A stretch of 64,000 nt of DNA from Alphaproteobacteria bacterium RIFCSPHIGHO2_01_FULL_41_14 (GTDB lineage: Bacteria > Pseudomonadota > Alphaproteobacteria > UBA7879 > UBA5542), in assembly GCA_001767855.1 (NCBI GenBank), contig MEMF01000002.1, positions 808,893 to 872,892 on the forward strand, given 5' to 3'. The notes below the pieces were generated by a model that was not told the origin of the DNA, did not search any database, and was given only the letters and a program-made list of their open reading frames with translations. This document shows positions 29,368-29,760 of this stretch, piece by piece. Numbering within the stretch: position 1 is the first letter of the stretch; every line of letters begins with the position of its first letter. Both the position numbers and the translations under genes were made by a program.

Positions 29368-29760
29368 ATGCCAGGTCCGGTGGTTACAACAGGCGCAATG
29401 GCCATGTGCACCATGGGGACAGGACCAGGTGTCTTAAACTTTATGCCACCCCCTGTGGTGAATTGCCCCACCCAGGCCGGCAAAATCACGGATATCGTCC
29501 CTATCAAAAATATTCCCTCTTTTATCCTGTGTATCAGTCTGGCAAACCCAGTGGTCGCAGCTGCCACCGCTTCTCACTTAGGCGTCCTCACCCCCATGCC
29601 GTGCGTTCCAGCACCTGCTGGCCCGTGGATTCCGGGATCTGCCTCTGTTTTTTTAGGGGGTATCCCTATGCTGAATTCAAGCTGTATGCTACATTGTTCC
29701 TATGCGGGGGTGATTACCATTACCTTTCCTGGTCAGAAGGCTTCCATTTGCACCAAGTGA
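29368..29760 (+). CDS. PAAR-like DUF4280 domain protein (putative spike-tip / effector-loading protein of a contractile secretion system)
   Basis: 130-aa ORF with a strong RBS (aggagaaactcATG). The sequence has GAMAMCTMGTGPGVL..., NPVVAAATASHLGVLTPMPCVPAPAGPWIPGSASVFLGG and C-terminal CSYAGVITITFPGQ, which match the conserved blocks of DUF4280 (GAxLxCSfG...NPxVAAATAAxLGVLTPMPCxP...PWxPGS...CxwGGvIxIxxPGQ). Confidence 0.7.
   Translation: MPGPVVTTGAMAMCTMGTGPGVLNFMPPPVVNCPTQAGKITDIVPIKNIPSFILCISLANPVVAAATASHLGVLTPMPCVPAPAGPWIPGSASVFLGGIPMLNSSCMLHCSYAGVITITFPGQKASICTK

Follow-up and report, generated by a model that had tools for sequence, protein, structure and literature searches.

We have analysed a stretch of 64,000 nucleotides (nt) from Alphaproteobacteria bacterium RIFCSPHIGHO2_01_FULL_41_14 (contig MEMF01000002.1, positions 808,893 to 872,892), hereafter the window, around a gene for a 130-amino-acid (aa) DUF4280 protein, i.e. 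a PAAR-like protein. The gene is followed on the same strand by a gene for a protein with a transmembrane (TM) helix and a probable C-terminal SPOR domain, and then by an islet of three genes that ends at tRNA-His; on its other side it is divergent from hdaA (Table 1). A first-pass annotation, made from the sequence alone, had described the DUF4280 gene as the orphan tip or adaptor locus of a contractile injection system encoded elsewhere, either a type VI secretion system (T6SS) or an extracellular contractile injection system (eCIS), with the open reading frames (ORFs) downstream as its candidate cargo. Homologous loci carry our own L numbers where they have to be told apart.

In Pfam the 130-aa protein matched PF14107 with an E-value of 6.4e-23 and 81.9 bits, the gathering score being 26.3. 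The profile was covered in full, positions 1-109 of 109 being aligned to residues 6-123, and as the domain begins at residue 6 there is no N-terminal extension. Four cysteines (C14, C55, C79 and C110) were invariant in an alignment of 30 sequences, the window protein and 29 homologues; in a larger alignment of 120 sequences three of them were invariant and C110 was conserved in at least 90%. Four conserved metal-binding cysteines, each required for secretion, are the hallmark of DUF4280/PAAR-like proteins, of which IglG is the founding member with experiments (PMC5349215, PMC5014421). The canonical PAAR model PF05488 gave no match to the window protein at E<=0.1. Against the IglG model in NCBIfam (NF041248) the protein scored 14 bits, under the cutoff of 200, which makes it a DUF4280 protein of the generic kind rather than an orthologue of IglG.

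The DUF4280 gene is under purifying selection, with a ratio of nonsynonymous to synonymous substitution rates (dN/dS) of 0.10-0.18 against relatives, and it is better conserved than the adjoining hdaA, as the identity among relatives is 57-75% for DUF4280 and 33-62% for HdaA. Over longer distances the subfamily remains about 50% identical across Pseudomonadota, Myxococcota, Acidobacteriota, Planctomycetota, Actinomycetota and Firmicutes, with the near-invariant core NP-V-AAT--ALGVLTPMPC-P. Such conservation is unusual for a 130-aa structural protein common to T6SS and eCIS.

The structure predicted with AlphaFold2 (AF2) from 120 sequences was all-beta with one short helix, with a predicted local distance difference test (pLDDT) of 80.0 and a predicted TM-score (pTM) of 0.69; it superseded an earlier run with 30 sequences (pLDDT 63.8). 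A Foldseek comparison with the PDB gave 9jg8_B as the best match (E=5.4e-4, probability 1.00, TM-score 0.63, 24% identity), and the best eight matches were all spike-tip proteins, namely 9jg8_B, 9jg9_B, 4jiv_D, 4ku0_D, 9f4b, 4jiw_D, 9vyi and 6p1z_D. Those ranked after 9jg9_B are VCA0105, T4 gp5.4, a Klebsiella phage baseplate tip, c1882, the phage P1 baseplate and phiKZ gp163.1. Confidence in the model is moderate, and E<1e-3 was reached for the first match only; the family sequence profile also picked up 9jg8_B, at E=3.6e-5. These comparisons support a PAAR-like conical beta fold for the modelled protein. The family assignment made in the first-pass annotation was confirmed by the full-length PF14107 match, and its PAAR-like reading agrees with the structure prediction, where the closest PDB entry is a DUF4280 domain on a VgrG spike and PAAR proteins come next. 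By family, cysteines and fold the window protein is a PAAR-like DUF4280 protein.

The gene surroundings of homologues were collected from a scan with one genome per species, which gave 80 loci of about 46-75% identity from many phyla including Gram-positives. ORFs within 10 kb were clustered, and recurrent clusters were named with Pfam as VgrG, TssC, TssK, TssM, TssG, Phage_sheath_1, gp19-like tube, Pvc16_N and AAA ATPase. T6SS genes were found at 27 of the 80 loci, eCIS genes at 25 and VgrG only at 3, the remaining 25 having none of them. When metagenome loci were added and classified with hidden Markov models (HMMs), the figures for 160 loci were 50 (T6SS), 42 (eCIS), 12 (VgrG only) and 56 (none), where many loci in the last class sit on contigs of a few kb. 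The DUF4280 subfamily is thus a component of contractile injection systems, split between T6SS and eCIS; with T6SS or eCIS genes within 10 kb at 92 of the 160 loci, calling the protein a hallmark of such systems was justified.

The gene downstream begins 29 nt past the DUF4280 stop, and the two are therefore probably co-transcribed. Its product has an N-terminal TM helix at about residues 6-27 (by hydropathy) and a probable SPOR domain at about 205-285, separated by a low-complexity linker that is K/D/G-rich and Pro-rich. Three orthologues (P0122, P0129, P0130) scored 25.5, 22.2 and 28.6 bits with the Pfam SPOR model PF05036 (cutoff 21), and the T6SS-linked counterparts from L015, L083 and L095 scored 42.3, 34.9 and 46.1 bits. 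The close family of the partner is small: it has 16 members in a collection of 5.8 billion proteins, all from this clade. In every readable relative (L012, L017, L018, L178, L179) the SPOR gene stands directly after DUF4280. The same pair heads T6SS operons in unrelated bacteria, i.e. in L015/L016 (metagenome), L083 (Acetobacteraceae) and L095 (Gemmatimonadota), where the order is DUF4280, TM + SPOR, a lipoprotein at the TssJ position, TssK, TssL, TssM, TssA, TssB and TssC.

A custom SPOR HMM was built from the partner and the T6SS-linked proteins and run on 177 loci. It scored the window partner with 133 bits and matched 26 of the 177 loci, in all 26 on the same strand and immediately 3' of DUF4280, and the TM-linker-SPOR architecture is uniform among these partner proteins. 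The partner was present in 12 of 50 T6SS loci and in none of 42 eCIS loci (Fisher p=3.7e-4). Judged by sequence and synteny, the gene is a conserved partner of DUF4280 and not cargo. The first-pass annotation had counted it, from 29781, as the first of the cargo candidates, which does not fit a TM + SPOR gene that is kept with DUF4280 in all relatives and lies inside T6SS operons elsewhere.

Table 1. Features of the DUF4280 locus (window coordinates)
Feature	Positions	Strand	Description
Shine-Dalgarno AGGAG	29357..29361	+	6 nt 5' of the DUF4280 ATG; read from the sequence
DUF4280 (PAAR-like) gene	29368..29760	+	130 aa, ATG start; bare domain without N- or C-terminal extension
Partner gene	29790..30668	+	292 aa; TM helix and probable C-terminal SPOR domain
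540-aa protein	30788..32410	+	Islet gene
377-aa kinase-like protein	32770..33903	+	Islet gene
227-294-aa protein	34015..34899	-	Islet gene
hdaA (DnaA regulatory inactivator)	28563..29234	-	Hda_lid and NCBIfam HdaA matches; divergent neighbour
tRNA-His	35017..35093	+	ARAGORN and Rfam; right border of the variable slot

The distribution of the partner also bears on the type of system. A tip of an eCIS or tailocin (Afp/PVC-like) encoded elsewhere would agree with about a quarter of the related loci being eCIS clusters, with Phage_sheath_1, a gp19-like tube, Pvc16_N and the AAA ATPase, and with the window protein being equally close, at about 50-55% identity, to eCIS-type and T6SS-type homologues. 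We regard it as highly improbable, since the SPOR partner is absent from every eCIS locus, the eCIS loci come mostly from Firmicutes, Actinomycetota and Bacteroidota, and Holosporales are reported with T6SS and not with eCIS. A T6SS is most likely on two grounds: the partner occurs in T6SS loci and never in eCIS loci, and a scattered T6SS is what Holosporales are reported to have. The first-pass annotation had left both systems open, and of the two a T6SS is much the likelier.

Three observations on the homologous loci can be added. Among Firmicutes (Oscillospiraceae, Ruthenibacterium, Ligaoa) the loci L020, L036, L059, L066, L068, L077 and L080 are highly syntenic eCIS clusters in which the DUF4280 gene is flanked by a Pvc16_N gene and a sheath gene. 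DUF4280 is preceded in these clusters by conserved proteins with a HAMP domain (about 890 aa) and with MORN repeats (about 580 aa), which may form a sensor or regulator module of a Gram-positive eCIS. Upstream of the DUF4280/T6SS operon of L014-L016 (about 100-8000) there are bestrophin-like proteins and several eCIS_core (former DUF4157) genes with variable C-termini including acetyltransferases; the eCIS_core-domain proteins are probably polymorphic T6SS effectors, and a DUF4157 protein is part of a toxin system in 'Candidatus Bodocaedibacter' (PMC8163844).

What the partner might do was approached through TssL, in a comparison that covers loci ordered DUF4280 ... TssK-L-M. Loci with the SPOR partner (L014-16, L083, L095) have a short, DotU-only TssL of 261-268 aa, whereas those lacking it (L025, L041, L069, L093) have a TssL of 447-459 aa in which DotU is followed by a C-terminal OmpA peptidoglycan-binding domain. 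SPOR partner and OmpA-TssL are thus distributed in a complementary way. Clusters with an 'ancestral' TssL are known to carry a separate peptidoglycan-binding accessory protein such as TagL (PMC13584744), and TssL-SPOR fusion proteins have been described (PMC3326028). Because the complementarity mirrors the rule for TagL, we infer for the SPOR protein a role in tethering the membrane complex to the cell wall. In L014 and L015 a gene for an SLT lytic transglycosylase is divergent from DUF4280. 'Candidatus Bodocaedibacter' has a lipoprotein gene directly before tssK and a TssL gene of 759 nt (PMC8163844), which is too short to include OmpA, so that this TssL is DotU-only.

The organism itself belongs to a lineage where such a system is expected. 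An identical DUF4280 protein is recorded for the groundwater metagenome-assembled genome (MAG) Alphaproteobacteria bacterium RIFCSPLOWO2_01_FULL_45_8. Among reference genomes the closest homologue is from Holosporaceae bacterium HK-STAS-PROT-86 (75% identity; chromosome of 1,017,199 bp), followed by Holosporaceae bacterium UBA5542 (69%), and a metagenome scan with the DUF4280 protein gave, among the matches listed, only distant loci from outside Holosporales, 45-57% identical. The organism is a Holosporales-like groundwater bacterium with a genome of roughly 1 Mb. Almost all sequenced Holosporales, down to those with the smallest genomes, have kept a T6SS, Holospora being the exception (2025 review, PMC11909080), and the literature describes its core genes in this order as spread over at least four separate loci.

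There is a direct precedent from a sister lineage: in 'Candidatus Bodocaedibacter vickermanii' the 393-nt DUF4280 gene CPBP_01201 is listed with the T6SS genes (PMC8163844, Supplementary Table 3). Its orthogroup has entries that we read as Caedimonas, Odyssella, two Paracaedibacter species and UBA6184, and none of the four Holospora codes seen in other rows (PMC8163844). In the literature searched we found nothing that relevantly pairs Holosporales with PAAR, nor any mention of the MAGs by name or accession.

Taken together, the gene probably encodes the bare PAAR-like spike tip of a scattered Holosporales T6SS, and does so together with a SPOR wall anchor. By analogy with known tips, the 130-aa protein would fold into a small conical beta structure held by one metal through C14, C55, C79 and C110. 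It would cap the blunt end of the VgrG trimer and sharpen the spike and, if the IglG experiments and the 9jg8 structure are a guide, would be needed for productive assembly and firing and be expelled with the spike. With no extension domain it is taken as a structural tip rather than a toxin-carrying PAAR protein. The partner would be a bitopic inner-membrane protein whose periplasmic SPOR domain anchors the T6SS membrane complex to peptidoglycan, a task that elsewhere would fall to the OmpA extension of TssL or to TagL. The core genes would lie elsewhere in this genome and, since Holosporales core genes are scattered, the locus is best seen as one more fragment of the system and not as a cargo island.

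The surroundings of the pair are those of a housekeeping region. Across the window and its 10-kb flanks, housekeeping genes (parC, recO, era, rnc, spoT, gatCAB, pdh, lipA, rluD, hdaA, a miaB-like gene, ftsY, prfA, uvrC, ribosomal protein operons, secY, rpoBC) are broken by islets of hypothetical, partly eukaryote-like proteins. The order hdaA(-)/DUF4280(+) is kept in L012, L017, L018, L097, L178 and L179, and tRNA-His is at the equivalent position in L018, L178 and L179. hdaA marks the housekeeping position of the DUF4280-SPOR pair in the clade and is not part of the system.

No T6SS or eCIS core family was among the Pfam matches of the genes called in these approximately 84 kb. In the six-frame translation of the window, custom HMMs for VgrG, TssC, TssK, TssM, TssF and TssG, and for eCIS sheath, eCIS tube, Pvc16 and eCIS AAA ATPase, gave no match at E<=1. 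The earlier remark that VgrG, Hcp, sheath and baseplate genes are missing from the window was accurate, and the locus is indeed an orphan, detached from core genes over about 84 kb.

This distance is one of several points that weigh against a T6SS tip with its wall anchor. In a neighbour-joining tree of 162 DUF4280 domains the nearest neighbours were mixed, and the clade was not assigned to the T6SS type over the eCIS type. The Pfam SPOR score of the window partner is 20.8 bits, 0.2 below the cutoff. L091 is an exception to the complementary distribution, having a DotU-only TssL, an 82-aa TM stub and no SPOR partner; moreover the four OmpA-TssL loci are all from Betaproteobacteria, which leaves few independent lineages behind the complementarity. 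The relatives carry the NCBI label Holosporaceae, the family which also holds the T6SS-less Holospora. By gene number the neighbours of CPBP_01201 are two small paralogous hypotheticals and not SPOR genes, the sole SPOR protein listed in 'Candidatus Bodocaedibacter' (CPBP_00644) being elsewhere in the genome, and CPBP_01201 had 0 RNA-seq reads (PMC8163844).

The 84 kb and the zero reads would both suit a stranded remnant, where the genome has no contractile system and the pair is decaying or is kept for another envelope function, e.g. at the division septum. SPOR proteins normally act at the division septum, and TM + SPOR is also the architecture of FtsN/DedD-type proteins; the pair is moreover found among housekeeping genes beside hdaA at every divergence level seen. 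Such a remnant is quite unlikely in our judgement. The strong purifying selection and the ORFs intact in all relatives show that the pair is not decaying. Its presence inside T6SS operons of unrelated phyla, the T6SS in nearly all Holosporales and the way in which the DUF4280 orthogroup tracks T6SS-bearing lineages also speak against a remnant.

The three genes after the pair fill 30669-35016, between the SPOR gene and tRNA-His, with a GC content of 0.41-0.47 compared with 0.50-0.53 in the neighbours. In L017, L018 and L178 this slot is empty, and next after the SPOR gene come tRNA-His (at those loci where it was detected), the miaB-like gene and ftsY; in L179 it holds one unrelated 451-aa gene on the opposite strand, for a signal-peptide protein. 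Homologues of the three islet genes were found at none of these four loci. The slot is a hot spot for lineage-specific genes. By eye and hydropathy, the N-termini of the islet proteins are hydrophobic and signal-peptide-like. Searches with Pfam and NCBIfam detected no adaptor or chaperone (DUF4123, DUF1795, DUF2169) and no MIX/FIX, toxin or immunity domain in the islet. A HicA-like C-terminus of the 540-aa protein, seen by eye, was dropped, as Pfam gave nothing at E<=5 and a sequence search of the PDB gave nothing.

The 377-aa protein had weak matches to APH, choline-kinase, EcKL and TCAD9-type families. It belongs to a small family, with 187 representative clusters at E<=1e-3, in which some members are fused to ankyrin repeats and K141, H263-x-D265-x4-N270 and D284, i.e. 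the catalytic Lys, HxDxxxxN and Asp, are conserved. The protein may well be host-directed, without a tie to the tip protein.

That the ORFs at 29781-33903 are cargo effector and immunity genes loaded through DUF4280, as the first-pass annotation had it, is unlikely. Variable genes downstream of PAAR or VgrG are typical of T6SS auxiliary effector islands, and the slot after the DUF4280-SPOR pair does vary between relatives; a kinase-like protein with ankyrin fusions in its family would also fit a host-directed effector. Yet the first downstream gene is the conserved TM + SPOR partner, the 540-, 377- and 227-aa genes are missing in all four relatives examined, which keep DUF4280 and SPOR, and signal-peptide-like starts are unusual for T6SS substrates. 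The DUF4280 protein has no extension to hold a cargo, no adaptor, effector or immunity domain was detected, and the 377-aa gene has a promoter-like site of its own at 32719-32747, in a scan not above shuffled expectation. Absent from relatives, of lower GC (0.41-0.44 against 0.50-0.53), with signal-peptide-like starts and without effector domains, the genes at 30788-33903 are weak cargo candidates.

The promoter scan of 28500-35200 was as a whole not above shuffled expectation, and for this reason the promoter/terminator scan was not used for operon structure. In the hdaA/DUF4280 intergenic region (29276-29330) the blocks AAAAAGATAG and TCTCTTTACTTTT..C.CAAAG are conserved among close relatives; the window copies overlap a terminator-like hairpin at 29287-29310 on the + strand. 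The blocks may be a shared promoter or regulatory element of the divergent genes.

Other parts of the window also hold genes of interest. Two tandem paralogues at 19390-21508 (+) are 59% identical and share a signal-peptide-like N-terminus and RNI-type leucine-rich repeats (LRRs), and the second carries an F-box. Their best matches outside the genome are eukaryotic LRR proteins (Guillardia, Naegleria, rotifers), and a search with the protein at 19390-20583 gave its own paralogue in the window and eukaryote-like LRR proteins only; both proteins are candidates for eukaryote-like effectors of a symbiont. An islet with genes at 21703-23424, 23632-24099, 24399-25160 and 25585-26157 encodes a Sel1-repeat protein, a MamF/MmsF-like membrane protein and two unknowns. 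It lies in the lowest-GC stretch of the window (0.40), and of its proteins the 190-aa one alone is conserved in relatives. The minus strand at 37279-38550 encodes two proteins in tandem (194 and 199-218 aa) that are paralogues with 65% identity and begin with hydrophobic, Gly-rich segments; Pfam gave no match to them, and L017 and L018 have one copy at 46-56% identity. To the right of the window, L180 and L181 are two assemblies with the same ribosomal operon and different DNA upstream of tuf: the order is rpoB-rpoC-rpsL-rpsG-fusA-tuf in one, whereas in the other tuf is preceded by unrelated genes, which suggests two tuf copies or a strain rearrangement.

T6SS is the leading candidate for how Holosporales manipulate their protist hosts, and its parts list has been described as incomplete and non-standard. 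For one uncultured lineage the locus now identifies the spike-tip gene, together with a likely wall anchor, and the order hdaA - DUF4280 - SPOR gene - tRNA-His can serve as a synteny marker for related MAGs. No new kind of system is described here, and the appeal of a cargo island is removed. What is modestly new is the module of DUF4280 and TM-SPOR, together with its complementary distribution relative to OmpA-TssL; this pattern, seen across phyla, extends the list of T6SS accessory genes in a way that can be tested.

A 2026 review of T6SS accessory genes (PMC13584744) does not name the pair, nor was it found named in the literature searched. Tentatively, and with some doubt, one could go further and regard DUF4280 + TM-SPOR as an unnamed accessory module, with SPOR as a third kind of anchor besides OmpA-TssL and TagL that stays coupled to the tip despite the scattering of the T6SS. 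As part of such a reading, the SPOR anchor may bring the complex to denuded glycan strands that a lytic transglycosylase has opened. If so, the persistence of the pair would be a hint that tip and wall anchor are linked in function or in assembly.

Compared with known tips, the closest by structure and by profile is BtpeA of the Bacteroides T6SS cargo complex (9jg8/9jg9), where an N-terminal DUF4280 domain physically caps VgrG. BtpeA is an effector of 608 aa that carries DUF3289 at its C-terminus, whereas the window protein is a bare tip. IglG of Francisella has the DUF4280 domain, four conserved cysteines and a predicted PAAR-like cone (PMC5014421, PMC5349215), but differs in an N-terminal alpha-helical extension that binds IglF, and the Francisella T6SS is an atypical subtype. 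Canonical PAAR proteins (VCA0105, 4jiv; c1882, 4jiw; T4 gp5.4, 4ku0) belong to the same class of conical folds and presumably occupy the same place on the spike, with weak matches (Foldseek E 0.2-0.4, TM-score 0.43-0.46); they have PAAR motifs and bind Zn through three His and one Cys, in contrast to the four conserved cysteines here. CPBP_01201, likened by length and annotation, is also a stand-alone gene for 130 aa, away from all other T6SS loci in a small Holosporales genome.

The partner, for its part, resembles TagL and the OmpA-extended TssL in being a predicted inner-membrane protein with a periplasmic peptidoglycan-binding domain, in clusters whose TssL lacks one. It differs from both in being a separate gene adjoining a PAAR-like gene. 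TagL, which binds TssL, has three N-terminal TM helices and OmpA/Pal/MotB (PF00691), whereas the partner has one TM helix and SPOR, and no OmpA domain was matched on it in Pfam. By this analogy the partner may work like TagL without being a member of that family.

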